From positions 1,485 through 15,941 of the forward strand of contig DALYLQ010000006.1 of assembly GCA_031976225.1 (NCBI GenBank): a DNA stretch of 14,457 nt. Reading direction: 5' to 3'. Within the stretch, counting starts at the first letter, position 1. Each line of letters starts with the position of its first letter. The position numbers and the translations under genes are program-made. A model generated the notes under the pieces. It saw only the letters and a list, made by a program, of their open reading frames with translations, made no database searches and had not been told where the DNA came from. Shown here one piece after another: positions 625 to 13,873 of the stretch. This DNA comes from Chitinophagaceae bacterium. GTDB taxonomy: Bacteria; Bacteroidota; Bacteroidia; Chitinophagales; Chitinophagaceae.

Positions 625-640
625 CGCCTTACGGCAAATG
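625..640 (-). repeat. Copy 1 of the recurrent motif (G-variant, reverse orientation): CGCCTTACGGCAAATG, which is the reverse complement of CATTTGCCGTAAGGCG.
   Basis: Read directly from the sequence. It forms an inverted pair with copy 2 at 721-736, with one mismatch over 14 nt. Confidence 0.6.
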
Positions 641-661
641 AATACGCAATTCGCAAGCATC

Positions 662-690
662 AATCACTCCTTAGGGAGTGATTTTTTATT
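662..690 (+). terminator. Rho-independent terminator of metG.
   Basis: Stem AATCACTCC (662-670), loop TTAG, stem GGAGTGATT (675-683), followed by TTTTATT. It lies 47 nt after the metG stop. Confidence 0.75.
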
Positions 691-720
691 CGATGCAAGT
701 AATGGCTACCCTCGAAACCA

Positions 721-736
721 CATTTACCGTAAGGTA
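721..736 (+). repeat. Copy 2 of the recurrent motif: CATTTACCGTAAGGTA.
   Basis: Exact 16-mer, identical (as reverse complement) to copy 5 at 7152-7167. It lies 77 nt upstream of the 813 start codon. Confidence 0.65.
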
Positions 737-812
737 AAAGAAAGCGTTAAAATAGTTAGCTATGCAACTAATTTTCCCTTAGTTTTGAAACCACTAAAAT
801 GCTTTTTACCAT

Positions 813-3209
813 ATGAAACGTTCTATCAAAAACGTAGCAGTGTTGGGTTCGGGCGTAATGGGTAGCCGTATTGCCTGCCATTTTGCTGGCATTGGCGTGC
901 AGGTGTTGTTGCTCGATATTCAGCCAAAAGACACACCCGCCGATGCACCGGCAGCCATAAAGAACAAGATTGTGAACGATGCGCTGGCCGCAGCCGTGAA
1001 AAGCAACCCTAGTCCGGTGTATACCAAAGATGTTGTTAAGCGCATTACAACCGGCAACTTCACTGATAATATGAAAGACGTTGCAAAAGCCGATTGGATT
1101 ATCGAAGTAGTGGTTGAGCGTCTTGATATTAAGCAACAGGTATATGAACAAGTAGAAAAGTATCGTAAGCCTGGTACACTAATAACATCGAATACATCGG
1201 GTATACCGATACATTTATTATCGCAAGGCCGTAGCGACGATTTTAAAAAGCATTTCTGCGGCACACACTTTTTTAATCCGCCGCGTTACTTACGGTTACT
1301 AGAAATTATTCCTACCCCTGATACCGATAGCACTGTTGTAGATTTTCTAATGCATTATGGCGATGTATTTTTAGGCAAAACCACGGTTTTAGCGAAAGAC
1401 ACACCTGCCTTTATTGCGAACCGTATTGGCGTATTCGGCATCATGGCCATTTTCAATAGCATGGAGAAAATGGGCCTTACCATTGACGAGGTTGATGCAC
1501 TAACCGGCCCGTTGATTGGCAGACCTAAGAGCGCCACCTTCCGTACAGCCGATGTAGTGGGTATTGATACATTAGTGAAAGTAGCTAAAGGTGTTGCCGA
1601 TAATTGTCCGAACGATGAAGCTCGCAACATTTTCACCATCCCTTCATGGTTAGAAACCTTAGTTAACAACAACTGGTTGGGCGACAAGAGCGGACAAGGT
1701 TTCTTTAAAAAAGTAAAAACACCAGAAGGGAAAAAAGATATTCAAACGCTGAATCTTAGCACACTTAGCTATGAGCCGCGTAAGAAACCAAAATTTGCAA
1801 CGGTAGAAACTGCCAAACCTATTGACAACTTGCATAAGCGCTTAAAAGCCTTAGTAAGTGGTACTGATAAAGCGGCTGAATTTTTGCGCCACTTTCATTA
1901 TGCATTGTTCTCTTATATCTCTTTCCGTATTCCAGAAATCAGTGATGAACTATATCGTGTAGATGATGCCATGATGGCTGGTTTTGGTTGGGAAATTGGT
2001 GCTTTCGAAAGTTGGGATACACTTGGTGTTGCCAACACTGTTGACGCTATGAAAAAAGCAGGCTACCAGGTGGCTCCTTGGGTTGAAACCATGTTAGCGG
2101 CTGGCCATACTAGCTTTTACAAGGTACAACAGGGCAAAAAACTGTATTACCAACAGCATGCAATGAATGAAAGCGAAGCCGGTAACTACAAAGCACTACC
2201 TGGAGGTGATGCCTTTATTGTATTGAACAACTATAAAGACAAGCTAGTTTGGAAAAACAGTAACGCTGCTTTATACGATATTGGCGATGATGTAGTTGGC
2301 CTACAATGGAATACTAAAATGAACAGTATTGGCAGCGAAGTATTAGAAGCTGTTAATAAAAGCATCAATATTGCAGAAGAGCAATTCAAAGGACTTGTTA
2401 TTGCCAACGACGGTGCCAACTTTAGTGCTGGTGCTAACGTGGGAATGATATTTATGTTCGCTATTGAACAAGAGTACGATGAACTTGATATGGCTATTCG
2501 CATGTTCCAGAACACAATGATGCGTTGCCGTTATTCATCTGTACCAGTGGTAGTTGCTCCACACGGGTTAACATTAGGTGGTGGTTGCGAAATGAACTTA
2601 CATGCTGATAAAGTAGTTGCCGCTGCAGAAACCTATATCGGCCTGGTTGAATTAGGTGTTGGCTTAATTCCTGGCGGTGGTGGCACTAAAGAATTTGTAT
2701 TGCGTGCTGCCGATGAAATGCATGAAGACGAGCCTGAAACAATTACACTCAAACATCGCTTCTTTAACATTGCTACGGCAAAAGTAGCCACTAGTGGCTT
2801 TGAAGCTTTTGAAGCAGGTATCTTACGTAAAGGAATTGATGAAGTAGTTGTGAACCAAGGCCGCCGTATTGCCGTAGCGAAACAAGCCATTTTAGATATG
2901 CATGCCAAAGGTTATGCACAACCGCAGCAGCGTAAAGATGTTAAAGTATTAGGCCGTAGTGCTTTGGGAGCATTACATGCAGGCATTAATGGTATGTGGC
3001 GTGCCAATTATGCTACAGAACACGATGCGTTGGTAGCTCGCAAGCTTGCTTATGTAATGTGTGGTGGCGATTTGAGTGAGCCTACTTTTGTTTCAGAGCA
3101 ATACTTACTTGACTTAGAACGTGAGGCTTTCTTGAGTTTGTGTGGCGAACGCAAAACACTAGAACGTATTCAAGGTGTATTAACTACAGGTAAGCCATTG
3201 CGTAACTAA
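813..3209 (+). CDS. Bifunctional fatty-acid oxidation protein of 798 aa: 3-hydroxyacyl-CoA dehydrogenase (N-terminal NAD-binding Rossmann domain) fused to a C-terminal enoyl-CoA hydratase/isomerase (crotonase) domain.
   Basis: N-terminus VAVLGSGVMGSRIA (GxGxxG NAD-binding fingerprint) plus the HCDH core (FFNPPRYLRLLEII, ANRIG). The C-terminal half has a crotonase fold (ANDGANFSAGANV..., LTLGGGCEM, GLIPGGGGT). The HCDH-then-ECH order is the arrangement seen in Bacteroidetes FadB-like proteins, which is reversed relative to E. coli FadB. Confidence 0.9.
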   Translation: MKRSIKNVAVLGSGVMGSRIACHFAGIGVQVLLLDIQPKDTPADAPAAIKNKIVNDALAAAVKSNPSPVYTKDVVKRITTGNFTDNMKDVAKADWIIEVVVERLDIKQQVYEQVEKYRKPGTLITSNTSGIPIHLLSQGRSDDFKKHFCGTHFFNPPRYLRLLEIIPTPDTDSTVVDFLMHYGDVFLGKTTVLAKDTPAFIANRIGVFGIMAIFNSMEKMGLTIDEVDALTGPLIGRPKSATFRTADVVGIDTLVKVAKGVADNCPNDEARNIFTIPSWLETLVNNNWLGDKSGQGFFKKVKTPEGKKDIQTLNLSTLSYEPRKKPKFATVETAKPIDNLHKRLKALVSGTDKAAEFLRHFHYALFSYISFRIPEISDELYRVDDAMMAGFGWEIGAFESWDTLGVANTVDAMKKAGYQVAPWVETMLAAGHTSFYKVQQGKKLYYQQHAMNESEAGNYKALPGGDAFIVLNNYKDKLVWKNSNAALYDIGDDVVGLQWNTKMNSIGSEVLEAVNKSINIAEEQFKGLVIANDGANFSAGANVGMIFMFAIEQEYDELDMAIRMFQNTMMRCRYSSVPVVVAPHGLTLGGGCEMNLHADKVVAAAETYIGLVELGVGLIPGGGGTKEFVLRAADEMHEDEPETITLKHRFFNIATAKVATSGFEAFEAGILRKGIDEVVVNQGRRIAVAKQAILDMHAKGYAQPQQRKDVKVLGRSALGALHAGINGMWRANYATEHDALVARKLAYVMCGGDLSEPTFVSEQYLLDLEREAFLSLCGERKTLERIQGVLTTGKPLRN

Positions 3210-3222
3210 GCCTCGATGCTTT

Positions 3223-3237
3223 ATTTACCGTAAGGTA
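3223..3237 (+). repeat. Copy 3 of the recurrent motif: ATTTACCGTAAGGTA.
   Basis: Lies between the 3209 stop and the terminator stem. The same extended 17-mer TATTTACCGTAAGGTAT occurs at 11114-11130. Confidence 0.6.
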
Positions 3238-3250
3238 TACTTTTATAAAA

Positions 3251-3281
3251 AAAGCAGCTTCAATGTAGAAGCTGCTTTTTT
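3251..3281. terminator. Bidirectional rho-independent terminator shared by the convergent genes 813..3209 (+) and 3302..3733 (-).
   Basis: Perfect 11-bp stem AAAGCAGCTTC (3251-3261) and GAAGCTGCTTT (3268-3278) with loop AATGTA. It is flanked by an A-tract upstream and TTTTTT downstream, so it works on either strand. Confidence 0.8.
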
Positions 3282-3301
3282 GGTGTTATAGGTAATATGT
3301 T

Positions 3302-3733
3302 TTACACAGTAATAGCAACGGTATTTTGCAAAGTTTGTAGGGTACTGTTACCACCAATTCTAAGAATGGTACCATTGGTGTTGTATTCAATGGTGTAATC
3401 AACCAATAGCTGATCACCATTATTCACGTTAGGAATACGTATATTCTTTAATAATGCGGCACTGCTTTGCTGTGGGAACTCATTGAGCTGCATAGGAGCA
3501 ATTTCTGTTTGATACACCGGTGTTACTACGCGGCCATCTACTTTGCTTACCGCTACAATTACTTTAGCATAAGCTTGTGTGTAGATAGGTGCCGTATAAT
3601 TTTTATTAGCGTAAATAGCGAGTTGAATGTTCTGTTCTTTCACATCGCTACAAGTTTGCTGCTCTTGATGTGGTACTAATAAAAGCCCTGTAGTAAAAAG
3701 GCTGGCGAGTAAAGTGATCCAAAAAGTTTTCAT
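3302..3733 (-). CDS. Hypothetical small exported protein of 143 aa with an N-terminal signal peptide.
   Basis: The track ORF is 3302..3772, but the start is more plausibly the internal Met at 3733 (MKTFWITLLASLFTTGLLLV, a classic signal peptide). It lies downstream of the histidine kinase on the same strand and I see no recognisable catalytic motifs. Confidence 0.55.
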   Translation of the reverse strand: MKTFWITLLASLFTTGLLLVPHQEQQTCSDVKEQNIQLAIYANKNYTAPIYTQAYAKVIVAVSKVDGRVVTPVYQTEIAPMQLNEFPQQSSAALLKNIRIPNVNNGDQLLVDYTIEYNTNGTILRIGGNSTLQTLQNTVAITV

Positions 3734-3872
3734 AACAATATGTTGTTGCGTTGGGTTGATATTTTTTGACACTGCAAAGCAACATACATACTGCGTTAAA
3801 GAAATTTAAAGGGCTGATGAAGGCATAGGTAGGCGGATGTATGGTAAGCCTATTTGGATAAGTGGTAAAAGC

Positions 3873-5315
3873 TTATGCCCCTGGAAACTGTACTGTAAAG
3901 GCATTACCATGAGCATCGTTACTTTCGTAATGAAGATGGCCACCCATTTTTTCAGTTAATTGTCGGGCAATACTAAGCCCCAAACCTTTTACCTCTGTCA
4001 AATCGCGATCGCCTGTGGCAGCCTGTTGTAATCGGTTAAAAATTTCATCGAGTTTAGCTTGACCAATTAAATTTCCGGTGGTTTTGCAAGTAATCACAAC
4101 ATCGGTACCAACCACACCCGATACAATTTTAACAGTACTACCAACATCTGATAAGCGTATTACGTTGCTCAACAGCTTGTACATAAGTTGATAAGTTACT
4201 TGCTCATCTAAGTACACAGGTAGTATACCAGGTTGTAATTGAAGTTGCAATTGTACCTGATGCACCATAGCCACCTGCTTTAGATTGGCTGCTGCTTCCG
4301 ATACAATTCTATTGATATCAAATTCGGCGTAATGAAACGAATTGCGTTGTTGGTCATCCATGTTAGCTTTTGCCATCTTTTTTGCGAAAAAAGCAAAGCG
4401 TTCATTCGCTTTTTCAATCAACGCCACCACTTGCTGTTGTTGCGGTGTTAAATGATCATCTTTTAATAAATCAACCCCACTTTGAATGCTGGTATTAAAA
4501 CCATTTAAATCGTGTAACAACATTTGTAACGTAGTGTTACGTGTTTCAGAAACTTTATCTAAATGTCGCTGAATAGATGCAGCTCTAACCTTAACATCCA
4601 TTAATAATTCTTGCAGCTCAGAAAGCATACTGTTACTTGCTTCTATAATTTCATTCTTATGAATATCGTGTAATAATTTGCGGCGTTGGCTATAACTAAA
4701 TGCAGTTGCTAGTATACCAAGAATAATCAACCATCCGTAGTAATACGATTCAAAAAGTGATTGTGCCGATGCTGCACCTTGCCACCAAAAGCAACTCAAA
4801 TAGGTAAGCGACCATGCGAGTAAGGTTAGCACTAATGTATAACGGGTACGCCAGCTACTACTCCAAGCAATTCCTAACAACAATAAGCCCGTGCATGTAA
4901 TTTGTATAGGTAATGCCCTTACGGGTAAAAAAGCAGTTTGCAACGATTGCACCATCACCAATATAAGCGATACTAAAAAGCTACTAATAAATACTGTTTT
5001 TAGGTTAGCAGTTTTTACAGCAACAATGCTTACAACTGCAAGAATACTCATGAGTACTACTTCAATCAGCCATTGCTGCTGCATCCATAGTAAGTTCAGT
5101 ATCAAAAGAATAGGCAATGCCGATACCAATCGAGCCAATAAACGCCTTGCATGTAGCCGTTGAAAACGTATTAATGAATTATGAATATCTTCTTGATTAG
5201 CTTGTGCTAAAGCAAGAGGAATTGGAGTTAACATACTGCTCATAAAAATCAATAAGGGTTGCTGAATGAAGTTAGCACTTTGAATCCATATAGTCAGACT
5301 ACCGCTAATAATCAT
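3873..5315 (-). CDS. Membrane-bound sensor histidine kinase of 480 aa. It has an N-terminal polytopic sensor with about six TM helices, then a HisKA dimerisation/phosphoacceptor domain and a HATPase_c domain. No receiver domain is present.
   Basis: About six hydrophobic segments in residues 1-210. H-box LLHDLNGF (HDLxxP/G type). N-box LLSNVIRLS. G-boxes EVKGLGLSIARQL...GGHL. C-terminus ends FTVQFPGA. The N-terminal start codon choice is uncertain. Confidence 0.85.
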   Translation of the reverse strand: MIISGSLTIWIQSANFIQQPLLIFMSSMLTPIPLALAQANQEDIHNSLIRFQRLHARRLLARLVSALPILLILNLLWMQQQWLIEVVLMSILAVVSIVAVKTANLKTVFISSFLVSLILVMVQSLQTAFLPVRALPIQITCTGLLLLGIAWSSSWRTRYTLVLTLLAWSLTYLSCFWWQGAASAQSLFESYYYGWLIILGILATAFSYSQRRKLLHDIHKNEIIEASNSMLSELQELLMDVKVRAASIQRHLDKVSETRNTTLQMLLHDLNGFNTSIQSGVDLLKDDHLTPQQQQVVALIEKANERFAFFAKKMAKANMDDQQRNSFHYAEFDINRIVSEAAANLKQVAMVHQVQLQLQLQPGILPVYLDEQVTYQLMYKLLSNVIRLSDVGSTVKIVSGVVGTDVVITCKTTGNLIGQAKLDEIFNRLQQAATGDRDLTEVKGLGLSIARQLTEKMGGHLHYESNDAHGNAFTVQFPGA

Positions 5316-5335
5316 TTCTCAACGGTGTACCTTTT

Positions 5336-5349
5336 TTTACCGTAAGGTA
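5336..5349 (+). repeat. Copy 4 of the recurrent motif: TTTACCGTAAGGTA.
   Basis: Lies in the 77-bp divergent intergenic region between the histidine kinase start at 5315 (-) and the ABC start at 5393 (+). It is identical (as reverse complement) to the intragenic copy at 8976-8989. Confidence 0.6.
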
Positions 5350-5392
5350 TCATTCAAAAACAATAATTATGTGACCGTAACTTTTATTACAC

Positions 5393-6304
5393 ATGAGTAT
5401 TGTATTATCACTACATCAACTATCTAAAAACTACGGCAAGGTACAAGCCTTACAACAAGTAAGTTTCGATGTACCTCAAGGCTGTGTTTTTGGTATTTTA
5501 GGACCTAACGGTAGCGGCAAAACCACGCTTTTAGGTATTATTATGAACGTGCTGCAACCCACCAATGGCAACTTCACACTTTTAGGGAAACAACCATCGA
5601 ACGAAGTGCGCAAGCAAATTGGCACACTGTTAGAAACACCTAACTTTTATCATTATTTGAGTGGTGAACGTAATTTAGAAATAGCAGCCACCATTAAAGG
5701 TGTATCTAAAGCCGATATTACTACAGTACTAGAGAAAGTAAATTTATATGAACGTAGGCAAAGTAAATTTAGCACCTATAGTTTAGGCATGAAACAACGC
5801 CTAGCCATTGCGAGTGCATTACTTGGCAACCCCGATGTACTAGTACTAGACGAGCCTACCAATGGCCTCGACCCTGTTGGTATTGCAGAAATTCGCAACC
5901 TTATTATTCAACTAGCGAACGAGGGTAAAACCATTATTATGGCTAGCCACCTACTCGATGAAGTTGAAAAAGTATGTACCCATGTAGCGGTATTGCAAAA
6001 AGGAAAACTTCTCAATACAGGAACTGTTGACGAAGTATTTACCACAGGCGATAGCATTGCTACACTTCAAGCCGATGATTTAGACCAATTAGTAACTGTT
6101 ATCAAAACATTAGAAGGTGTTCAAAAAATACAAATCAAGAACAACACTTTACAGGTGCATTTCGATACAGCAATACTCTCTTTAAAAAGCATCAACTTAC
6201 ATTGCTTCAATAATGGTATTGTACTCAGTAGCTTACAGCTACAAAAACAAAGTTTAGAAAGCAAATTTTTAGCACTTACAGGTGGCCTTACGGTTAATCA
6301 TTAA
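5393..6304 (+). CDS. ABC transporter ATP-binding protein of ABC-2 / drug-efflux type, 303 aa, with a roughly 80-aa C-terminal extension.
   Basis: Walker A GPNGSGKTT, Q-loop, signature YSLGMKQRLAIASAL, Walker B VLVLDEPTNGLD, H-loop ASHLL. Confidence 0.9.
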   Translation: MSIVLSLHQLSKNYGKVQALQQVSFDVPQGCVFGILGPNGSGKTTLLGIIMNVLQPTNGNFTLLGKQPSNEVRKQIGTLLETPNFYHYLSGERNLEIAATIKGVSKADITTVLEKVNLYERRQSKFSTYSLGMKQRLAIASALLGNPDVLVLDEPTNGLDPVGIAEIRNLIIQLANEGKTIIMASHLLDEVEKVCTHVAVLQKGKLLNTGTVDEVFTTGDSIATLQADDLDQLVTVIKTLEGVQKIQIKNNTLQVHFDTAILSLKSINLHCFNNGIVLSSLQLQKQSLESKFLALTGGLTVNH

Positions 6305-6315
6305 TCAATAACAAC

Positions 6316-7107
6316 ATGTTACATTTACTTTACATAGAGTGGCTTAAACTCAAAAACTATCGTACCTTCTGGATTCTTGCGGCCTTATATTTAATCAGCA
6401 TATCAGGCATCAACTATATCACACTAGAATTCATCAAAAAAGCCTACGAAAACCCAGCCGCCAAACTTATTGCCGGAACGCATCCCTTCGCATTCCCCGA
6501 TGTATGGCAAACTGTAACTTACATGAGTAGCTTCACGCTGTTCTTACCGGGCTTACTCATTATTATCAACTACACTAATGAGTTTAGTTACAAAACACAT
6601 CGTCAAAACATCATTGATGGATATAGCCGCCAACAATACATTTCAATCAAAATCATACTTGTATTGTTGCTTGCCCTAATCAGTACACTGCTGGTAACAA
6701 TTAATGCGGCAGCTTTCGGCATAGCACATAACGAAACACCTTTCTCCTTTGAGAAAGCACATTATATCGGCTTGTATTTCGTTCAATGCTTAAACTATTT
6801 CGGGTTGGCACTATTACTCAGCGTACTCTTTAAAAGAGCAGCATTAGCAGTAGGCGTGTACTTTATATATATTGCTATTTTAGAAGATATGATTGGTGGT
6901 ATTATCAACCGATTTAAAGCACCTATAGGTAACTTCTTCCCTATTGATAGCGCCGATAGCCTTATTACCTTTCCTATGTTTAAAGAAGCACAAAAAACAT
7001 TACCCATTGTACGACCAGAATTATGGCAAGTAGCTATTGCATGCGGTATTTACATTGTACTTTATTACACTATCAGCTATTGGCGATTTAGCAAACAAGA
7101 TTTATAA
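6316..7107 (+). CDS. ABC-2 family transporter permease, 263 aa with about six TM segments.
   Basis: Starts 12 nt after the ATPase stop, indicating an operon. It has hydrophobic helices throughout. The size and topology are typical of ABC-2 permeases paired with the preceding ATPase. Confidence 0.75.
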   Translation: MLHLLYIEWLKLKNYRTFWILAALYLISISGINYITLEFIKKAYENPAAKLIAGTHPFAFPDVWQTVTYMSSFTLFLPGLLIIINYTNEFSYKTHRQNIIDGYSRQQYISIKIILVLLLALISTLLVTINAAAFGIAHNETPFSFEKAHYIGLYFVQCLNYFGLALLLSVLFKRAALAVGVYFIYIAILEDMIGGIINRFKAPIGNFFPIDSADSLITFPMFKEAQKTLPIVRPELWQVAIACGIYIVLYYTISYWRFSKQDL

Positions 7108-7118
7108 ACAAGCACCAT

Positions 7119-7146
7119 AACCAACCTTCGGGTTGGTTTTTTATTG
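7119..7146 (+). terminator. Rho-independent terminator after the ABC operon.
   Basis: Stem AACCAACC (7119-7126), loop TTCG, stem GGTTGGTT (7131-7138), then TTTTTATT. Confidence 0.8.
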
Positions 7147-7151
7147 TACAC

Positions 7152-7167
7152 TACCTTACGGTAAATG
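7152..7167 (-). repeat. Copy 5 of the recurrent motif, reverse orientation: TACCTTACGGTAAATG, the reverse complement of CATTTACCGTAAGGTA.
   Basis: Exact 16-mer match to copy 2. It sits immediately after the terminator and 38 nt upstream of the 7205 start. Confidence 0.65.
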
Positions 7168-7204
7168 ATGAAGCATAAATTTACCCTTCTATCGTAATAG
7201 CCTC

Positions 7205-8233
7205 ATGCAACGAAAAACCTTTTTACTACAATCGGCAGCAGCACTTGGCGGTGCTTTATTATACTCCAATCAAGCTTTTACCGCAAGGAAAAAGCCAAAG
7301 AAAATCATACAACCACCTTTTTTAAAAACGGGTGATACTATTGGCATTGTAGCACCCTCTGGCTATGTTACTGAAGCTACGGTTAAGGCTGCTATAGAAC
7401 GCATTCAAGCATGGGGTTTTAACGTTGCGCTAGGTAACACCATTGGCCAACGTTGGGGCACTTTTGCCGACACCGACGAAGCCCGTGCAGCCGATGTGCA
7501 AACCATGATTAACAATAGAAACATTAAAGCTATTCTTTGTGCTCGTGGTGGCTACGGATGGACAAGAATCATGCACCGCATTAATTGGAAATTGCTACAA
7601 CAACAACCCAAGTGGATGATTGGCTTTAGCGATGCAACAGTAGCTCATAGTTACATCAACACGCATCTACACATAGCGAGTATTCACAGTAAAATGTGCA
7701 ATAGCTTCCCCGACGATTGGGCAACCGCAACACCCGAACAACAAGCTACTATTAACAGCATTGAACAAGCTATTACCGGCAAGCCACTTCGCTATAACCT
7801 GCCAACAGATACCAACAATCAATTAGGTACTGTAACAGCTCCAATTATCGGTGGCAACTTGCGTTGTATCGAAAACCTTGCAGGAACACCCTATGCACTT
7901 CAAACAGCAGGAAAAATACTTGTTCTTGAAGATGTTGAAGAACCGCGTTACAATATAGACCGTATGTTTTGGAACCTCTATCATAGCGGTGTACTAGCTT
8001 CATTAAAAGGACTTATTATTGGCGGATTCAGAGAAAAAGCAGCCACCGACCCTAACGATGAGTTTGGTTTAACACTTCCCCAAATTGTACTCGAAAAAGT
8101 ACAAGCATATAACTACCCTGTTGCATTTCAAATGCCAATTGGGCATCAACGAAATAACTTTGCCATCAAACTAGGTGTTACACATCAATTAAACGTGAAT
8201 GCCGAATATTGCAGTTTAGAAGCACTTGCGTAA
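7205..8233 (+). CDS. LD-carboxypeptidase (peptidase S66, LdcA/MccF family) of 342 aa with an N-terminal export signal.
   Basis: S66 hallmarks: GDTIGIVAPSG, IKAILCARGGYG, the nucleophile motif GFSDAT, and a C-terminal region with His and Glu. The N-terminus MQRKTFLLQSAAALGGALLYSNQAFTA looks like a Tat-like signal with RK in place of RR, or a Sec signal. Confidence 0.8.
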   Translation: MQRKTFLLQSAAALGGALLYSNQAFTARKKPKKIIQPPFLKTGDTIGIVAPSGYVTEATVKAAIERIQAWGFNVALGNTIGQRWGTFADTDEARAADVQTMINNRNIKAILCARGGYGWTRIMHRINWKLLQQQPKWMIGFSDATVAHSYINTHLHIASIHSKMCNSFPDDWATATPEQQATINSIEQAITGKPLRYNLPTDTNNQLGTVTAPIIGGNLRCIENLAGTPYALQTAGKILVLEDVEEPRYNIDRMFWNLYHSGVLASLKGLIIGGFREKAATDPNDEFGLTLPQIVLEKVQAYNYPVAFQMPIGHQRNNFAIKLGVTHQLNVNAEYCSLEALA

Positions 8234-9148
8234 ATGACAACAACCATAACTCCACCTTATTTACAACCCGGCGATACAATTGCCATTACTTGCCCCGCAG
8301 GTTTCTTACCACATCACAAGGTAGAAGCTTGTGTAGCAACTTTGCAACTTTGGGGCTTTCGTGTAATCGTTGGCAATACAGTTGGCAATCAACATCATTA
8401 TTTCGCAGGCACTATCGAAGAAAGAAAAACAGAAATTCAAAACTTCTTAAACGATACTACCATTCAAGCCATTTTATGTGGTAGAGGTGGCTACGGTGTT
8501 AGTCAGATAATTGATACGCTAAATTTTGAGGTATTCAAGCAGCATCCCAAATGGTTATTAGGATTTAGCGATATTACCCTACTGCTCAACCATGTACTAG
8601 CTAATTATCAAGTAGCAAGTATGCACTGTTCAATGGCGGCAGCATTTACAAAGGAGCAACCTCAACCATTGCATATTCAAGCAATACACACATTACTTAC
8701 GGGAGGCAAGCAGGCTATTACGCAAGCTTTCAATCAACATAATGTACAAGGCATAGGAGCCGGAACGCTTATTGGTGGCAACCTCACTTTAATGGCACAT
8801 ATAATGGGTACAAATAGTTTACCGCAAGGTAACAACTACCTACTTTTCCTAGAAGATGTAGGCGAGTATTTGTACAATATCGATCGTATGTTGCACCAAT
8901 TAAAGCGAGCTGGTTTGTGGCAGCAAGTGAAAGGCATTATCGTCGGCGGATTTACCGATATGAAAGATACTACGATACCTTACGGTAAAAGTATAAACGC
9001 TATTGTTAGCGAGCACCTGCATGCGTTGAACATACCAGTGGCATTCGATATGCCTATCAGCCACGGCGAGCCTAACTATCCTGTAAAAGTAGGCGGATAC
9101 TACCAACTACACGTACACGAAGCTGGCGCTATACTACAAGAAATGTAA
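8234..9148 (+). CDS. Second LD-carboxypeptidase (S66) paralog of 304 aa with no signal peptide, so presumably cytoplasmic.
   Basis: Its ATG directly abuts the previous TAA (..GCGTAAATG..). It has [20 protein letters not shown] and GFSDIT. It is clearly paralogous to the preceding gene. Confidence 0.8.
8976..8989 (-). repeat. Copy 6 of the recurrent motif, located inside the coding sequence: TACCTTACGGTAAA, the reverse complement of TTTACCGTAAGGTA.
   Basis: Exact 14-mer embedded in the codons for IPYGKS of the second LD-carboxypeptidase. It lies about 275 nt upstream of the fumC start. Confidence 0.5.
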
Positions 9149-9264
9149 CAACGCTACAACAAAGCACACTTCCGTTAATATTGATACAAAGCAGGGCAAT
9201 TACTGATAAATTCCATTGGTTACTCAACAGTTTTCGCCCACCTTTGCCGCACAAAATTATTGCC

Positions 9265-10665
9265 ATGGAATACCGTATAGAAAAAGATACGATGGGTAAG
9301 GTACAAGTACCTGCTCACGTGTATTGGGGTGCTCAAACGCAACGCAGTATCGAAAATTTCAAAATTGCGCAAGACATCAACAAAATGCCGAAAGAAATCA
9401 TTCAGGCATTTGCATACTTAAAGCATGCTGCGGCACTTGCCAATAACGAATTGGGCGTTTTACCCACTGAAAAGAAAGATGCTATTGCTACTGTATGCCA
9501 AGAAATTTTAGAAGGTAAGTTGGCCGATCAGTTTCCGTTGGTAGTATGGCAAACCGGTAGCGGCACACAAAGTAACATGAACGTGAACGAGGTAATTGCC
9601 TACCGTGCACACGTAATTAACGGTGGTTCATTACTCGATGAACAAAAATTCTTGCATCCGAACGACGATGTGAATAAAAGCCAAAGCTCTAACGATACGT
9701 TTCCAACAGCCATGCATATTGCAGCATACAAAATGTTGGTAGAGGTAACCATACCAGGCATTGAAAAACTACGTGATACCCTTGCGGCAAAAAGCAAAGC
9801 ATTCATGAATGTAGTTAAAATTGGGCGCACCCATTTTATGGATGCAACTCCACTTACCTTGGGTCAAGAATTTAGTGGTTATGTAAGCCAATTAAATCAT
9901 GGTTTAAAAGCCATCAAAAATAGCCTTGCACACCTCAGCGAATTAGCTTTGGGCGGTACTGCTGTGGGCACTGGCATTAATACCCCGAAAGGTTACGATG
10001 TTGTAGTTGCCAAACATATTGCTGCGCTTACAGGCCTGCCTTTTGAAACAGCAGAAAACAAATTCGAAGCGTTGGCAGCTCACGATGCCATCGTAGAAGC
10101 GCATGGTGCGTTGAAAACAGTAGCCGTAAGCCTTATGAAAATTGCTAACGATATCCGCATGTTATCGTCGGGGCCACGCTCAGGTATTGGCGAAATTTTC
10201 ATACCCGATAACGAGCCAGGAAGCTCTATTATGCCGGGCAAGGTTAACCCAACCCAATGTGAGGCACTTACTATGATTGCAGCACAGGTATTAGGTAACG
10301 ACGTTGCTATTAATATTGGTGGTGCTAATGGCCACTTCGAACTAAACGTGTTCAAGCCGGTAATGATTTATAACTTCTTGCACAGTGCCCGCTTAATTGG
10401 CGATGGCTGTGTAAGCTTTAACGATAAATGTGCAGAAGGTATTGAACCGCTGCACGATAACATCAAAAAACACGTTGATAATAGTTTAATGTTGGTAACT
10501 GCTTTAAACACCAAAATAGGCTACTACAAAGCAGCCGAAATTGCACAAACAGCCCACAAAAACGGCAGTACTTTAAAAGAAACTGCTGTTGCACTTGGTT
10601 ATCTTACCGCTGAAGAATTTGACCAATGGGTAATTCCGGGTAATATGGTTGGCGACATTAAGTAA
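9265..10665 (+). CDS. fumC: Class II fumarate hydratase (fumarase C), 467 aa.
   Basis: [13 protein letters not shown] and the signature [19 protein letters not shown] are the fumarase-type variants, not the aspartase-type ones. The start at the internal Met 9265 ([13 protein letters not shown]...) is the conserved FumC N-terminus. The track ORF beginning at 9181 looks like a spurious upstream extension. Confidence 0.9.
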
Positions 10666-10696
10666 GCTACACTTACGTGTAAATGATTGCAATATA

Positions 10697-10726
10697 AAAG
10701 CCCCGTTATCAAGCGGGGCTTTTGCT
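10697..10726 (+). terminator. Rho-independent terminator of fumC.
   Basis: Stem AAAAGCCCCG (10697-10706), loop TTATCAAG, stem CGGGGCTTTT (10715-10724). Confidence 0.8.
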
Positions 10727-11114
10727 TGCCTACTATTATCTATCTATACAATAATTACGCTACGTGAGTAATTATCCCAACATCTACCCTTTTATCCCAT
10801 CATTTCGCCACTCATCACACATACATTGCCAATAGTATGGATGTACTTACCAATCATCCCGATTGCACTAGGTGCATGAATAGCCGTAGGTATATCTTTG
10901 ACACTTCAAACTAATCAGCGCTGCGGCGCACTATTATGACTGCTTATATTGCTTCGTTATTATTCAATTTTCGCCAAAGAGTGAAACCACCAGAAGCATA
11001 ATTTATTCATCTCATTTTATTATTTCTTGTTGTTGTTGGCTGCATGTTGGCTTACATGTATAGCCGGTAATACTTGCTTTGCTGCTTATCCAATAGCACA
11101 AGACTTAATATTCT

Positions 11115-11129
11115 ATTTACCGTAAGGTA
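11115..11129 (+). repeat. Copy 7 of the recurrent motif: ATTTACCGTAAGGTA.
   Basis: Lies 30 nt upstream of the flotillin start. It is followed by an AT-rich stretch with TAAATTTTA, which resembles the Bacteroidetes -7 box TAnnTTTG. Confidence 0.6.
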
Positions 11130-11158
11130 TTATAATTTCATATCATAAATTTTATAAC

Positions 11159-13075
11159 ATGACATCGTTCTTATGGAGCTATGGATGGCTCTTTGTATTA
11201 ATGCTAGCATTGATTTTGTACAAACAAGTTTTGCGGATTTTCTTTGGTATGGTGATTGTACCCGAAGATAAAATTGGCTTAGTTACGAAAAAATTTGTGC
11301 TCTTTGGTGAACCTAAAGCCCTACCCGATGGGCGTATTATTGCTACTAAAGGTGAAGCGGGCTTTCAAGCTACAACACTAGCCCCTGGCTTGTATTGGTG
11401 GATGTGGCCTTGGCAATATGGTATTGACATGCATTCGTTCACGGTAATTCCGGAGGGTAAAATTGGCTTAGTACTTTCAAACGATGGTGCTGAACTTCCA
11501 ACAGGTAATATTTTAGCTCGAAAAGTAGAGTGTGATAACTTTCAAGACACAACTGCATTTCTTAGTAATGGTGGACAAAAAGGTAGACAAACACATGTGT
11601 TAACACCAGGTACCTACCGTATTAACACCTTTGCTTTTACTGTTACCATTGCAGAAATGACCATCATCAATGAAAATAAGGTGGGTGTTGTTACGACTTT
11701 AGATGGTGAACCATTACCTAGTAATCAAATTGCTGGTAGGCATATTGAAGGGCATAACAACTTCCAAGACGTTGATAGCTTCTTGGTACACGGGGGTAAT
11801 AGAGGCTTACAACCACAAGTAATTTTAGCAGGTAGCTACTATATTAATCCATGGGCTATTCAAATTGAGGAAATTTGGATGACAGAAGTACCTATTGGTA
11901 ATGTTGGTGTGGTAATCAGCTATATCGGAGAGGAAGGAACCGACTTAACAGGCGATGGGTTTAAGCATGGCAATATTGTAAGTAAAGGCTTTAAAGGTGT
12001 GTGGATGGAACCTTTAGGTCCGGGTAAATATCCCGTTAATAAATATACCATGAAGGTTGAATTGGTACCTACCACAAACTTAGTACTCAATTGGGCCAAT
12101 GCTCGCAGTGAAGCACATGCCCTTGATAAGAACCTAAGTACTATTACAGTGCGTAGTAAAGATGGTTTCCCTTTTAACCTAGATGTAGCACAGATTATAC
12201 ACGTACCAGCCAATGAAGCTCCTAAGGTAATTGCACGTTTTGGTAGCATGACCAATTTAGTAAGTCAGGTACTAGAACCAACTATTGGTAACTACTTCCG
12301 TAACTCTGCTCAAGACAGTGATGTGATTTCGTTCTTAACAACACGTAAAGAACGCCAACAAGCCGCTAAAAATCATATCAAAGAAGTATTAGATGAGTAT
12401 AATGTTTATGCAGTAGACACTTTAATTGGTGATATTGTTCCGCCCGAAGCACTCATGAAAACCTTAACGGATCGCAAAATTGCTGAGGAAGAACAAAAAA
12501 CCTATCAAACCCAACGTATGGCACAAGAGCAGCGCCAAGGAGTTGAAAAAGAAACGGCTATTGCTGATATGCAGAAAGAAATTGTAAAAGCGCAACAAAG
12601 TGTAGAAATTGCACAGCGTACCGCCGATGCAGCCGTTAAAAAAGCTGAGGGTGATGCTACTAGTTTAAAACTGCAAGTAAATGCCGAAGCTGAGGCCACA
12701 AAAATGCGAGCTATCGCTGAAGCAGAAGCTACTAAAGCTAGAGCCGGAGCACAAGCAGAAGCTACCAAACTAAATGCTTCTGCCGATGCTGAACGTATTT
12801 CAAAAACGGGCCTAGCAGAAGCCGAAAAAATCATGGCAATTGGTAAGAGTACCGCCGAAGCCTACGAATTACAAGTAAAAGCTATGGGTAACGATAACTT
12901 CACTCGATTCAAAATAACGGAAGCCATTGGTAAAGAAAACATAAAAATAATTCCAGATGTTTTAATTAGTGGCGGCAATGGCACCGATGGAAGCATTAGT
13001 GGCTTGCTCGGTTTGAAATTAATGGATATGCTTCAAGATAAAAATACACTTGAAACACAATCTACTAATAGCTAA
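11159..13075 (+). CDS. Flotillin-family SPFH/band-7 membrane scaffold protein of 638 aa. It has an N-terminal TM anchor, four tandem 60-75-aa repeats, an SPFH core and a C-terminal Ala/Glu-rich flotillin coiled coil.
   Basis: N-terminal helix SYGWLFVLMLALILY. Repeats begin VPEDKIGLV, IPEGKIGLV, INENKVGVV and VPIGNVGVV, each with LP.G.I...NFQD..FL..GG..G.Q..V..G.Y.IN. SPFH core DVISFLTTRKERQQAAKNHIKEVLDEYNVYAVDTLIGDIVPPEALMKTLTDRKIAEEE. EA repeats AEAEATKMRAIAEAEATKARAGAQAEATK. Confidence 0.85.
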   Translation: MTSFLWSYGWLFVLMLALILYKQVLRIFFGMVIVPEDKIGLVTKKFVLFGEPKALPDGRIIATKGEAGFQATTLAPGLYWWMWPWQYGIDMHSFTVIPEGKIGLVLSNDGAELPTGNILARKVECDNFQDTTAFLSNGGQKGRQTHVLTPGTYRINTFAFTVTIAEMTIINENKVGVVTTLDGEPLPSNQIAGRHIEGHNNFQDVDSFLVHGGNRGLQPQVILAGSYYINPWAIQIEEIWMTEVPIGNVGVVISYIGEEGTDLTGDGFKHGNIVSKGFKGVWMEPLGPGKYPVNKYTMKVELVPTTNLVLNWANARSEAHALDKNLSTITVRSKDGFPFNLDVAQIIHVPANEAPKVIARFGSMTNLVSQVLEPTIGNYFRNSAQDSDVISFLTTRKERQQAAKNHIKEVLDEYNVYAVDTLIGDIVPPEALMKTLTDRKIAEEEQKTYQTQRMAQEQRQGVEKETAIADMQKEIVKAQQSVEIAQRTADAAVKKAEGDATSLKLQVNAEAEATKMRAIAEAEATKARAGAQAEATKLNASADAERISKTGLAEAEKIMAIGKSTAEAYELQVKAMGNDNFTRFKITEAIGKENIKIIPDVLISGGNGTDGSISGLLGLKLMDMLQDKNTLETQSTNS

Positions 13076-13080
13076 AATAT

Positions 13081-13099
13081 GGGGCGGCTTAGCCGCCCC
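13081..13099 (+). other. GC-rich stem-loop of GGGGCGG, a 5-nt loop and CCGCCCC. It is a possible weak terminator or RNA-processing element between the flotillin gene and the lipoprotein gene.
   Basis: Seen directly in the sequence. No T-tract follows on the + strand, so rho-independent termination here is uncertain. Confidence 0.4.
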
Positions 13100-13151
13100 A
13101 CAAGCAAAAACCATCCAGAAAGTATTTAATTTGATACATCAACATAAACAC

Positions 13152-13475
13152 ATGTCACGTATTACAACTACTACCCTAGCTGCAATATTGCTAGTACTAT
13201 TTAGCTGCAACGATAAAAATGAAGATATTACGGAAGATGTTAACCGTAAAGGAGCTGTTGAAAGCAGCATGAGTGTTGAACATATTGATAGCCTGCACGA
13301 CCTACTCATTACCAAACATACCGTTTGGCACAATGGAGCCGTTGCAAGGGTATTTGAACATAGAGATACCTTACCGGCTCTCGGCGATACACTCACTGAA
13401 GCTGAAAACAACGAAGGCGATACCAAACAAATTCTAGTGAAAAAAGATTATGAAATTTTCATTACCATTAAGTAA
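13152..13475 (+). CDS. Small hypothetical lipoprotein, 107 aa.
   Basis: The track ORF starts at TTG 13050 and overlaps the flotillin stop. The internal ATG at 13152 gives MSRITTTTLAAILLVLFSC NDKNED, a signal peptide ending in a lipobox-like LFSC and then an acidic mature N-terminus. I see no recognisable domain. Confidence 0.5.
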   Translation: MSRITTTTLAAILLVLFSCNDKNEDITEDVNRKGAVESSMSVEHIDSLHDLLITKHTVWHNGAVARVFEHRDTLPALGDTLTEAENNEGDTKQILVKKDYEIFITIK

Positions 13476-13489
13476 CTACGCAACAACAC

Positions 13490-13834
13490 ATGAAAAAATC
13501 TAAACATATAGAACTAGTATTAATTACCGCAGCACTGGCAAGCTGTAACCAACCCAAATACAAAAACAACGAGTGGGAAAGCGGTAACAAAACCTATGTT
13601 CGTGCCGATAGCACAGCACCATATACGCGTACACATTACCACGGTGGTGGTGTAGGCCGCTGGTTCTATGCCTTCAGACCTTATGGCGAGTATAACAGTT
13701 TTCAAAATGGCTACAGTAAAGCTGGTTATTATTCTAACGCTATCAGCGAAAAAAGCAACATTGGTTATAACAACAATAAATTCGGCATTGTACGTGGCGG
13801 CTTTGGTCGTAGCTCTTACAGTGCTAGTAGCTAA
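13490..13834 (+). CDS. Small Gly/Tyr/Asn-rich lipoprotein of 114 aa. It may be a DUF1190 (YgiB/YjfM)-like partner of the downstream ATP-grasp gene.
   Basis: MKKSKHIELVLITAALASC NQ.. has a lipoprotein signal and lipobox LASC. The body is low-complexity and Gly/Tyr-rich, ending GIVRGGFGRSSYSASS. It sits directly upstream of a YgiC-like gene, as ygiB and yjfM do in enterobacteria. The homology is inferred and not verified. Confidence 0.5.
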   Translation: MKKSKHIELVLITAALASCNQPKYKNNEWESGNKTYVRADSTAPYTRTHYHGGGVGRWFYAFRPYGEYNSFQNGYSKAGYYSNAISEKSNIGYNNNKFGIVRGGFGRSSYSASS

Positions 13835-13873
13835 GCATTTACCGTAAGGTGATAACTGCCTTACGGCAAATGC
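13835..13873. repeat. Copies 8 and 9 of the recurrent motif arranged as a 15-bp imperfect inverted repeat around a 9-nt spacer. It could form a hairpin or be a dyad operator.
   Basis: GCATTTACCGTAAGG (13835-13849), then TGATAACTG, then CCTTACGGCAAATGC (13859-13873). There is one mismatch (A/G), the same variant position as in the 625/721 pair. It lies between the lipoprotein stop (13834) and the ATP-grasp start (13906). Confidence 0.65.

Follow-up and report, generated by a model that had tools for sequence, protein, structure and literature searches.

A short asymmetric word of 16 nt, CATTTACCGTAAGGTA, is dispersed at high density through the DNA of an uncultured Chitinophagaceae bacterium, an organism known solely from MAGs and metagenome contigs. 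We examined it in a stretch of 14,457 nucleotides (the window), in further DNA of the same species and in related genomes. The word is abundant, is restricted to one lineage, lies both between and within genes, and in several proteins has arisen by substitution. We tentatively suggest, with a probability of roughly 40%, that it serves as a DNA-uptake-type "self" tag on chromosomal DNA, specific to the species group. DNA-uptake sequences were absent from the options offered in a preliminary description of the window, and they are the class that best matches the genomic pattern.

The window contains seven exact copies of the 13-mer TTTACCGTAAGGT and two copies of its G-variant TTTGCCGTAAGGC, numbers that 0 of 200 dinucleotide-preserving shuffles reached. 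When up to 2 mismatches were allowed, TTTACCGTAAGGT matched the window 13 times, compared with a mean of 0.57 in the shuffles (largest 4; none 13). Thus the preliminary description was right in taking the element for a real dispersed repeat and not a product of chance, and its coordinates were correct to within 1-3 nt (Table 1). The 13-mer that it described is the core of the repeat; the conserved unit is 16 nt long, with the consensus C-A-TTT-R-CCG-Y-AAGG-Y-A, and is preceded by a weakly kept TG..T, which reads TGCGTW in one subfamily. The word is near-invariant and carries roughly 26 bits of information. The flanks of the copies reveal no longer unit, TIR or TSD. A known Rfam RNA family was rejected, as the whole window gave no match to Rfam at the gathering threshold.

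Table 1. Copies of the word, and neighbouring hairpins, in the window.
Feature	Position	Core	Strand	Context
G-variant copy CATTTGCCGTAAGGCG	625..640	626-638	-	Begins 10 nt past the metG stop (615), ahead of the terminator at 662-683; kept in the sister species
Intrinsic-terminator-like hairpin (metG)	662..683		+	Between copies 626(-) and 723(+), 84 nt apart
Exact 16-mer CATTTACCGTAAGGTA	721..736	723-735	+	77 nt 5' of the 3-hydroxyacyl-CoA dehydrogenase start (813)
Copy TATTTACCGTAAGGTA	3222..3237	3224-3236	+	Convergent intergenic; begins 13-15 nt past stop 3209, then a hairpin with T-run; island of conservation in intergenic DNA otherwise diverged from the sister species
Copy TTTTTACCGTAAGGTA	5334..5349	5336-5348	+	Divergent intergenic, histidine kinase / ABC ATPase; sister species shows a 1-nt decay, AAGG to AAAG
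Near-copy TTAACCGTAAGGC, 2 mismatches	6285..6297		-	3' end of ABC ATPase gene; encodes GLTVN; sister species carries the closer form TTTACCGTAAGGC
Intrinsic-terminator-like hairpin, ABC-2 permease gene	7119..7138		+	Copy 7152-7167 lies directly 3'
Exact 16-mer with upstream TG..T extension	7152..7167	7153-7165	-	Between tandem genes, antisense to both
Near-copy TTTACCGCAAGGA	7277..7289		+	Within first S66 peptidase gene; loop variant GCAA
Near-copy TTTACCGCAAGGT	8818..8830		+	Within second S66 peptidase gene; loop variant GCAA; kept in the sister species
Coding copy CTTTTACCGTAAGGTA	8976..8991	8977-8989	-	Within S66 LD-carboxypeptidase gene 8234-9148; encodes IPYGK, part of an invariant KDTTIP[FY]GK block; no indel vs homologues of 47-53% identity
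Copy TATTTACCGTAAGGTA	11114..11129	11116-11128	+	30 nt 5' of flotillin start; a strain-specific flotillin indel starts 2 nt past the copy
Tight inverted pair, A-variant (+) and G-variant (-)	13836..13872	13838-13850, 13858-13870	.	7-nt spacer; 1 nt past stop 13834; folds as a 16-bp hairpin (DNA -14.1, RNA -22.3 kcal/mol)

In 340 kb of DNA of the species we counted 74 exact copies of the 16-mer, and 59, 56 and 58 copies that differ from it by one, two and three letters; 0.0003, 0.012, 0.27 and 3.7, respectively, are expected. When 2 mismatches at most were allowed, the 13-mer was found 277 times, 151 on the + and 126 on the - strand, or once per 1.23 kb. The overall sampled density is about one copy per 1.2-1.9 kb, taken from blocks picked for containing a copy or from the motif-rich flagged window, which leaves the genome-wide count uncertain. 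A search of related genomes, advised in the preliminary description, shows that the word is lineage-specific. Scanning the extended word over 185,579 GTDB species representatives returned 41 loci, all of them in a single MAG from the species of the window. A syntenic sister species (84.7% nt identity) carries the same word at orthologous sites, whereas 46 loci of at least 8 kb each, from relatives at 46-53% S66 protein identity, hold essentially no copies: they gave a single match at up to 1 mismatch, which is chance level, and display no analogous dispersed word.

Copy positions are stable across the ~15% sequence divergence between the species and its sister. In intergenic DNA, conservation between the two reaches 93.2% at motif positions and 83.1% elsewhere; a 15-nt indel accompanies one gain of an intergenic copy. 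The longest motif-free stretch, 5.3 kb, is a low-GC defence-type island carrying a UvrD-like gene and an AAA_15/AAA_21 ATPase; this observation comes from a single island.

We examined where the copies lie. Among 143 non-seed copies, 85 are intergenic, 51 (~36%) are coding and 7 lie at the edge of a gene; coding sequence makes up 89% of this DNA. The enrichment in intergenic DNA that the preliminary description proposed to look for is thus present, and about half of all intergenic regions 30 nt or longer contain a copy. Confinement to such regions did not hold up: ~60% of copies are intergenic and ~35-40% lie in ORFs. Likewise, most copies in the window are intergenic as first described, but the one at 8977 lies in the S66 LD-carboxypeptidase gene and the near-copies at 6285(-), 7277(+) and 8818(+) are genic. 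A positional bias relative to gene ends was also found, toward stop codons. In tandem intergenic regions 42 copies are nearer the upstream stop and 18 nearer the downstream start, with 35 in sense and 30 in antisense orientation; 29 copies have a stop within 25 nt, and 7 have a start that close. These numbers speak against the promoter-associated role suggested earlier. A transcription-factor regulon or promoter element was rejected on the same counts, and on the near-invariance of a ~26-bit word found in both orientations about once per 1-2 kb.

Neighbouring copies are co-oriented in just 84 of 237 cases (35%), indicating that there is no replichore skew. Chi and KOPS, which are read by DNA-processing machines, are likewise over-represented within and between genes, but they span 5-8 nt and show strong co-orientation with replication; an architecture motif of this type was rejected on the co-orientation of neighbours. 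Spacing is more even than random (index of dispersion 0.46, p = 0.0025, 37 blocks of 8 kb), partly because there is roughly one copy per intergenic region. Close inverted pairs number 24 (17% of copies), and several of them bracket terminators, that is, hairpins followed by T-runs. Both G-variants in the window had been described as partners in inverted pairs; this is so for the tight pair 13838/13858, whereas 626(-) and 723(+) stand 84 nt apart around the metG terminator.

Such a distribution could be expected of a binding site for an abundant sequence-specific protein (nucleoid-associated, chromosome-organising, or acting in termination or as a roadblock), each site being kept by selection for a local or global function unrelated to DNA exchange. 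The conserved islands amid diverged intergenic DNA (93% vs 83%), the occupancy of intergenic regions and the clustering right after stops and beside terminators are consistent with it, and orientation independence suits recognition at the DNA level. We nevertheless find this reading doubtful. The genome-wide sites known so far are either short words with a strand skew (Chi, KOPS) or occur in small numbers (parS, matS, NBS, SBS), unlike a near-invariant, unskewed word of this information content and sampled density. Selection at each site also fails to explain dozens of copies in unrelated coding sequences, or the 2-3x enrichment of encoded tripeptides described below. Furthermore, the word has palindromic arms around an invariant asymmetric centre, and covariation of its positions 3 and 12 is unexpected for a homodimer that tolerates both bases.

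The coding copies indicate how the word arises. Of 58 such copies, 34 are read in one frame (xLTVN), a preference that codon usage does not predict, and 49 are antisense. The motif-encoded tripeptides LTV, TVN, TVR and PYG are 2.1-3.4x enriched vs relatives. In the S66 peptidase, FabH and Nth, alignments with distant homologues are ungapped across the motif-encoded peptide; therefore these copies were made by substitution and not by insertion. A substitutional origin was thus found for 3 of the 4 checkable coding copies. The exception is a copy in the MutS linker, which coincides with a 4-residue insertion. Together with the copy gained at the 15-nt intergenic indel, it shows that some copies are not clean substitutions.

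Positions 3 and 12 of the word covary strongly (A-T, G-C), which implies a putative mini-hairpin, ACC-GYAA-GGT. The preliminary description had proposed two dyads; covariation supports TACC-GTAA-GGTA and lends no support to TTAC-C-GTAA. The predicted stem of a single copy is just 3-4 bp (-1.8 kcal/mol as DNA), and the computed RNA hairpin has -3.8 to -5.8 kcal/mol. The loops GUAA and GCAA are of the GNRA type and vary solely at N, and in 18 of 97 intergenic copies position 13 is G, which allows a U-G wobble. These features, and the many copies in likely 3' UTRs, would fit an RNA element, namely a hairpin with a GNRA tetraloop, located in 3' UTRs or leaders, that acts as a processing, stability or protein-binding signal. 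We regard this as very improbable: orientation in tandem intergenic regions is not biased relative to transcription (35 vs 30), the antisense excess among ORF copies means that most mRNAs bear the complement, the window has no Rfam match, and a 4-bp hairpin is marginal.

The covariation, and a loop that varies at no position but the N of GNRA, point to a single strand that folds; a miniature REP-like element, an option of the preliminary description, may also account for them. Such an element would comprise an unpaired 5' CATTT tag and a short stem-loop, read as single-stranded DNA by an HUH/Y1 (RAYT-like) enzyme or a domesticated relative, and would be mobile or kept for mRNA 3'-end or topology functions. 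REPs are imperfect palindromes of 20-40 nt with an unpaired GTAG or CGTC tag; those so tagged, some in Bacteroidetes, sit downstream of genes, supply stops, pair in opposite orientation and are occasionally intragenic (PMC3733652). The word shares with REP/REPIN-RAYT systems a tag with a stem-loop, hundreds to thousands of copies, a lineage-specific sequence, a position downstream of genes where some copies give the stop codon, and opposite-oriented dimers. Small indels accompany one intergenic gain and one coding copy, and another Chitinophagaceae contig (L217) bears classic palindromic REP-like repeats. We still consider such an element unlikely. The unit is only 16 nt, its stem is 3-4 bp, the GTAG/CGTC tag is replaced by CATTT, and there is no longer unit, TIR or TSD. 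REPs and REPINs are essentially extragenic and are added by insertion, whereas 51 of the 143 non-seed copies are in ORFs, those in S66 peptidase, FabH and Nth occupy ungapped conserved columns and do not fit a spread by insertion, and positions are stable over 15% divergence. Within the small part of the genome read, no gene flanked by copies resembled a Y1 transposase or RAYT. A crude regex for prepilin and HUH motifs in 303 ORFs (~354 kb, ~10% of the genome) returned nothing, a weak test for HUH proteins and a sample too small to inform on competence genes.

The uptake-tag reading, which we tentatively prefer, draws on the likeness to known systems. The DUS of Neisseriaceae (ATGCCGTCTGAA and its dialects) and the USS of Pasteurellaceae (AAGTGCGGT / ACAAGCGGT) are likewise short non-palindromic words, found about once per kb and equally on both strands. 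Like them, our word is enriched between genes yet common in ORFs, arises by substitution with a strong frame bias and enrichment of encoded tripeptides, has a spacing more even than random, pairs up in inverted orientation at terminators, and is common to sister species; a possible further parallel, seen here in one low-GC island, is its absence from foreign DNA. USS and DUS have been described as originating by mutation and recombination, not insertion; as evenly spaced, in both orientations and under-represented in ORFs; as forming dyad pairs at terminators; and as frame-biased, with tripeptides roughly doubled, and missing from genes without homologues (Findlay & Redfield 2009, PMC2817400; Frye et al. 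2013, PMC3630211). In contrast to the hosts of DUS and USS, ours belongs to the Bacteroidota and has no known competence, the likeness here being one of genomic pattern; the word also has a longer strongly conserved core, of 16 nt, and internal covariation with a GNRA-type loop implies a folded form. Known DUS and USS are read as duplex DNA, and to our knowledge they have no internal base-pair covariation. The strong 3:12 covariation is thus a point against an uptake tag, since a duplex-reading receptor does not explain it. Furthermore, any process favouring the word across the genome would equally produce all of the hallmarks listed.

Cyanobacteria have another hyperabundant short word, HIP1 (GCGATCGC), which is conserved and quasi-periodic and occurs within as well as outside coding sequence. 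Whereas our word is asymmetric, 16 nt long and limited to two sister species, HIP1 is a perfect palindrome of 8 bp, is linked to DNA methyltransferases and spans a phylum. A recent preprint proposes that HIP1 relates to horizontal transfer (bioRxiv 10.64898/2026.06.24.733823).

If the word is an uptake tag, a DNA-exchange step, most likely binding, uptake or processing in natural transformation, would favour fragments bearing it. Point mutation would make new copies wherever these are tolerated, such as just past stops and in permissive codons, signal peptides and linkers, and homologous recombination of the preferentially acquired fragments would spread and maintain them (molecular drive). 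DNA long resident in the genome would thereby come to carry the word about once every 1-2 kb, and recent acquisitions would still lack it. Inverted pairs and terminator-side copies would arise as a side effect of how permissive intergenic DNA is, and might in addition act as hairpins. Covariation within the word suggests that what is recognised may be single-stranded DNA, in a form that is or includes the small stem-loop ACC-GYAA-GGT with CATTT unpaired on its 5' side. Whereas the abundance, lineage restriction, distribution, substitutional origin, conservation and covariation of the word are observations, its tie to transformation and the nature of a protein reading it are inferred. In the literature no such tag is known for the phylum, and for Chitinophagaceae neither an uptake sequence nor natural competence is reported. 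Outside this species and its sister, the only known examples of such a pattern are the uptake tags of Neisseria and Haemophilus.

Seven exact copies of TTTACCGTAAGGT and two of TTTGCCGTAAGGC were found again in the window, and with up to 2 mismatches allowed the window holds 13 matches against 0.57 expected, a count never attained in 200 shuffles. The repeated element recognized in the preliminary description is thus real. It lies among housekeeping-type genes: the MetG C-terminus, a 3-hydroxyacyl-CoA dehydrogenase / enoyl-CoA hydratase of 798 aa, a histidine kinase, an ABC ATPase and its permease, two tandem S66 LD-carboxypeptidases, fumarase C, a flotillin-like protein and small hypothetical proteins. 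Searches across the window for tRNA genes and Rfam families gave zero matches. The tandem S66 arrangement is kept in the sister species, the sole close relative, as is a pair upstream of metG in which a motif copy abuts and overlaps a degenerate inverted one.

Coordinates of motif copies and associated features. Positions are those of the window unless preceded by an L-number, which denotes a locus or contig pulled from databases for comparison.
Feature	Position	Remark
Exact copies of TTTACCGTAAGGT	723, 3224, 5336, 7153(-), 8977(-), 11116, 13838	
Copies of TTTGCCGTAAGGC	626(-), 13858(-)	
Three intragenic near-copies	6285(-), 7277, 8818	
S66 LD-carboxypeptidase paralogues	7205-9148	ATG of second (8234) abuts stop of first (8233)
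Pair upstream of metG	L001 7630-7670 (window -1560 to -1520)	CATTTACGTAAGTA abutting CCTTACGGTAAAT
Flotillin (Band_7) gene and terminator, missing from 98%-identical strains	11132-13100	left junction 2 nt past motif copy 11116-11129; also seen in L003 5599-5641, L005, L007
Copy in MutS linker	L140 ~6905	
Longest motif-free stretch	L162 2707-8000	5.3 kb
Fragmented S66 peptidase and fumarase genes	L002 1538-3851	DMPB01000017.1
CRISPR-like array, IMG/VR contigs	L023 7392-7693; L053 7287-7830	
Tandem arrays in relatives	L176 5914-6134	period 21 nt
	L196 13195-13415	period 21 nt
	L229 7099-7194	period 17 nt
	L232 1937-2066 and 7273-7332	period 14 nt
Palindromes AACTTTTGGAAAGTTTTAAAACTTTCCAAAAGTT, other Chitinophagaceae contig	L217 2455-7535	34 nt, at least 4 sites in 18 kb

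We scanned one genome per GTDB species (n=185,579) with TGNNTNNNCATTTACCGTAAGGTA. All 41 of the 41 loci recovered come from a single MAG, Chitinophagaceae bacterium 21I_056.bin.39, and no other species among the 185,579 gave a match. Two loci of this MAG overlap the 33-kb region obtained by joining flanks to the window, indicating that it represents the same species; the joined region carries 20 motif copies, a mean of one every 1.65 kb. A 207-kb ENA metagenome contig matches the window at 99.9% identity, and the NCBI MAG GCA_003456175.1 does so at 100%; homologues carry Chitinophagaceae annotation. In GCA_003456175.1, runs of N and small duplications break up two of the genes, which is an assembly or scaffolding artefact and not biology. 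In the loci of 21I_056.bin.39, TTT[AG]CCGTAAGG[TC] occurs 166 times in 321 kb. The 16-mer CATTTACCGTAAGGTA is present in 340 kb as 74 exact, 59 one-off, 56 two-off and 58 three-off copies, where 0.0003, 0.012, 0.27 and 3.7 are expected, respectively. As presence of a copy was the criterion for choosing every block, the figure of one per 1.2-2.6 kb is an estimate of density and no census. The genome-wide copy number is likewise an uncertain estimate, because the frequencies of an extended TG..T form (4 of the 20 copies near the window, 43 in total in the reference MAG) do not agree. The sequence inspected, from MAGs and metagenome contigs, covers ~10% of the genome, and all evidence is computational.

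A scan of viral contigs with a 15-mer gave 114 single matches, about the number attributable to chance by a rough estimate, and no phage displayed host-like density. Two viral contigs with multiple matches hold the motif in a CRISPR-like array, with the exact 16-mer inside the 36-nt repeat GTTGTGATTACCTTACGGTAAATGGTTACTAACAAT and unique spacers of 30 nt. Their GC content is only 30-32%, which makes another host probable and the match probably a coincidence.

The lineage is an isolated one. Searching 5.8 billion proteins with the S66 peptidase yielded one close relative at 83%, the next being at 53% or less, so that identity descends in steps of 98%, 83% and at most 53%; fumarase homologues were too conserved to resolve relatives. 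A 21-kb locus of the sister species (L164) displays full synteny at 84.7% nucleotide identity, and the word recurs there at nearly every orthologous site. The two species agree at 84.8% of coding positions and at 83.1% of intergenic positions lying beyond the motif, whereas intergenic motif positions reach 93.2%; several intergenic regions show the motif as a conserved island amid diverged flanks. Turnover is also visible: one copy decayed in the sister species by G-to-A, one near-copy is nearer the consensus there, and one member of a pair exists only in the window species, along with a 15-nt indel. Strains of 98% identity differ by no SNP within any motif copy, which is uninformative on recombination. 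Such strains were also found without the flotillin gene and its terminator, carrying ~50 unrelated bases at that place; as the sister species has the gene, its absence reflects loss or replacement.

In 46 more distant Chitinophagaceae loci, each of at least 8 kb and with 46-53% S66 protein identity, the motif is essentially absent (one match at up to 1 mismatch). Together with its presence in the sister species, this marks the word as a lineage-specific element. Hunting the same 46 loci for a "dialect" revealed no comparable word dispersed through them, only local tandem arrays and a single palindromic family of REP-like type. The arrays differ in sequence, and at least some probably encode peptide repeats; the palindromes are near-perfect and dispersed, classic for REP-like elements, and bear no relation to the motif.

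We examined the position of the copies relative to genes using simple ORF-based calls, which agreed with database gene calls. Leaving aside the seed copies by which blocks had been picked, 85 of the 143 copies are intergenic, 51 lie within ORFs and 7 run across a gene end, in DNA that is 89% coding; among intergenic regions 30 nt or longer, around half bear a copy. The preliminary description had placed the word in nearly every intergenic region; it is not confined to such DNA, and copy 8977 sits in S66 peptidase coding sequence. In tandem intergenic regions 35 copies are sense and 30 antisense, with the upstream stop nearer in 42 and the downstream start nearer in 18. Likewise, 29 copies are no more than 25 nt away from a stop, against 7 for starts, and the TAA stop codon of some genes is supplied by the motif copy itself. 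Stop proximity and mixed orientation rule out the promoter-associated element suggested earlier and disfavour an RNA element; that the word acts as an RNA hairpin is contradicted by the missing orientation bias and is most improbable.

Adjacent copies are co-oriented in only 84 of 237 cases, indicating that a skew of the Chi or KOPS type is absent. Close inverted pairs number 24 (17% of copies), several of which flank both sides of classical terminator hairpins. Counted in blocks of 8 kb, copies are under-dispersed (index 0.46, p = 0.0025). The sample's longest stretch devoid of the motif is low in GC (0.28-0.36), encodes split UvrD-like ORFs or fragments and an AAA_15/AAA_21 ATPase, and looks like an acquired defence island.

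Inside genes, 49 of 58 copies are antisense and 9 sense, and a single frame (xLTVN / xLTAN) holds 34 of them. Codon usage was rejected as the source of this frame bias: it foresees the antisense excess (74%, against 84% seen) and prefers the wrong frame. Four coding copies were checked against distant homologues. Copy 8977 encodes IPYGK, part of the invariant KDTTIP[FY]GK block of S66 peptidases, and aligns ungapped with homologues of 47-53% identity. The FabH copy (GLTAN) aligns ungapped to solved structures, and the alignment of the endonuclease III copy (GLTVK) is likewise ungapped. The fourth encodes SLTA(N) in the MutS linker, a variable region; it falls at an insertion of 4 residues when compared with a 72%-identical homologue, and is the sole coding copy seen with an indel. 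Many further copies fall in signal peptides or at consensus-compatible positions. The tripeptides LTV, TVN, TVR and PYG are 2.1-3.4x commoner than in relatives, and also commoner than their own reversed sequences. The ungapped alignments and the tripeptide enrichment indicate that the word entered proteins mostly through point substitution.

The information-rich unit reads C(-2) A(-1) TTT R CCG Y AAGG Y A(+13), preceded by a weak T(-10) G(-9) T(-6) that is TGCGTW in one subfamily. Apart from this weak upstream signal, the aligned flanks of >200 copies contain no longer unit, TIR or TSD. Variable sites are few, namely 3 (A to G), 7 (T to C), 12 (T to C) and the edges -2 and +13, position 7 corresponding to N in a GNRA loop. 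Covariation links positions 3 and 12, both in intergenic copies (A..T 112, G..C 16, C..G 1, A..C 4, G..T 2; Fisher p = 3e-15) and in coding ones (A..T 57, G..C 23, A..C 8, G..T 1; p = 1e-13). This covariation speaks for a mini-hairpin (ACC-GYAA-GGT) whose 5' CATTT stays unpaired, thereby upholding one of the two internal dyads proposed before; the other, TTAC-C-GTAA, found no support. The mini-hairpin has little stability (-1.8 kcal/mol as DNA, -3.8 as RNA). Its form of a tag plus stem-loop agrees, as does the REP literature, with a small REP-like hairpin recognized by an HUH enzyme, but the stem is tiny, a GTAG or CGTC tag is absent and the coding copies are substitutional, making this reading unlikely.

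Uptake sequences are the standard example of a genome moulded by the machinery with which it exchanges DNA, and to our knowledge only two proteobacterial families have them. The uptake words USS (Pasteurellaceae) and DUS (Neisseriaceae) arise via mutation and recombination rather than insertion, are spaced more evenly than random in both orientations, form dyad pairs at terminators, are under-represented in ORFs (34.5-65% of copies), show strong frame bias with tripeptide frequencies roughly doubled, and are lacking in genes without homologues (Findlay & Redfield, PMC2817400). Related species have the uptake word or its dialects in common, and inverted pairs have been described (Frye et al., PMC3630211). 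At the sequence level the Chitinophagaceae word agrees with USS/DUS in even spacing, orientation, distribution relative to ORFs, mostly substitutional origin, frame bias, tripeptide enrichment, inverted pairs and presence in a related species, and it may share their absence from acquired DNA, to judge by the single island that lacks it; for this reason we favour a putative uptake or self-recognition tag, kept by biased DNA exchange, as the most likely explanation, with a probability of roughly 0.4. We know of no internal hairpin covariation in DUS or USS, a property that sets the Chitinophagaceae word apart from them. That the word is the site of an abundant DNA-binding protein we consider improbable. 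A regex search of 303 ORFs for prepilins and HUH transposases, a crude test over ~10% of the genome, gave no match, which is uninformative. More tentatively, the putative tag may belong to a third independently evolved uptake or self-recognition system, the first outside Proteobacteria, in an uncultured Chitinophagaceae lineage, whose signal would be read as a single-stranded hairpin (CATTT tail plus ACC-GYAA-GGT) and not as a duplex. Our literature searches for uptake sequences in Chitinophagaceae or Bacteroidota found no relevant report, and for the word itself 8 million papers gave just two matches, to a primer or seed and irrelevant.

If the word is no uptake signal, some process writes a near-invariant 16-mer at such density by point substitution, reaching proteins as well as the genome, which would be of interest in itself. 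The word is also a precise marker for metagenome binning and for tracking the lineage. If the uptake reading is true, self-preferring natural transformation is predicted in an environmental group of wastewater- and freshwater-type Bacteroidota where none is known, and the molecular-drive model could be tested independently. Because covariation points to a hairpin as the recognized form, the receptor would be of a different kind.
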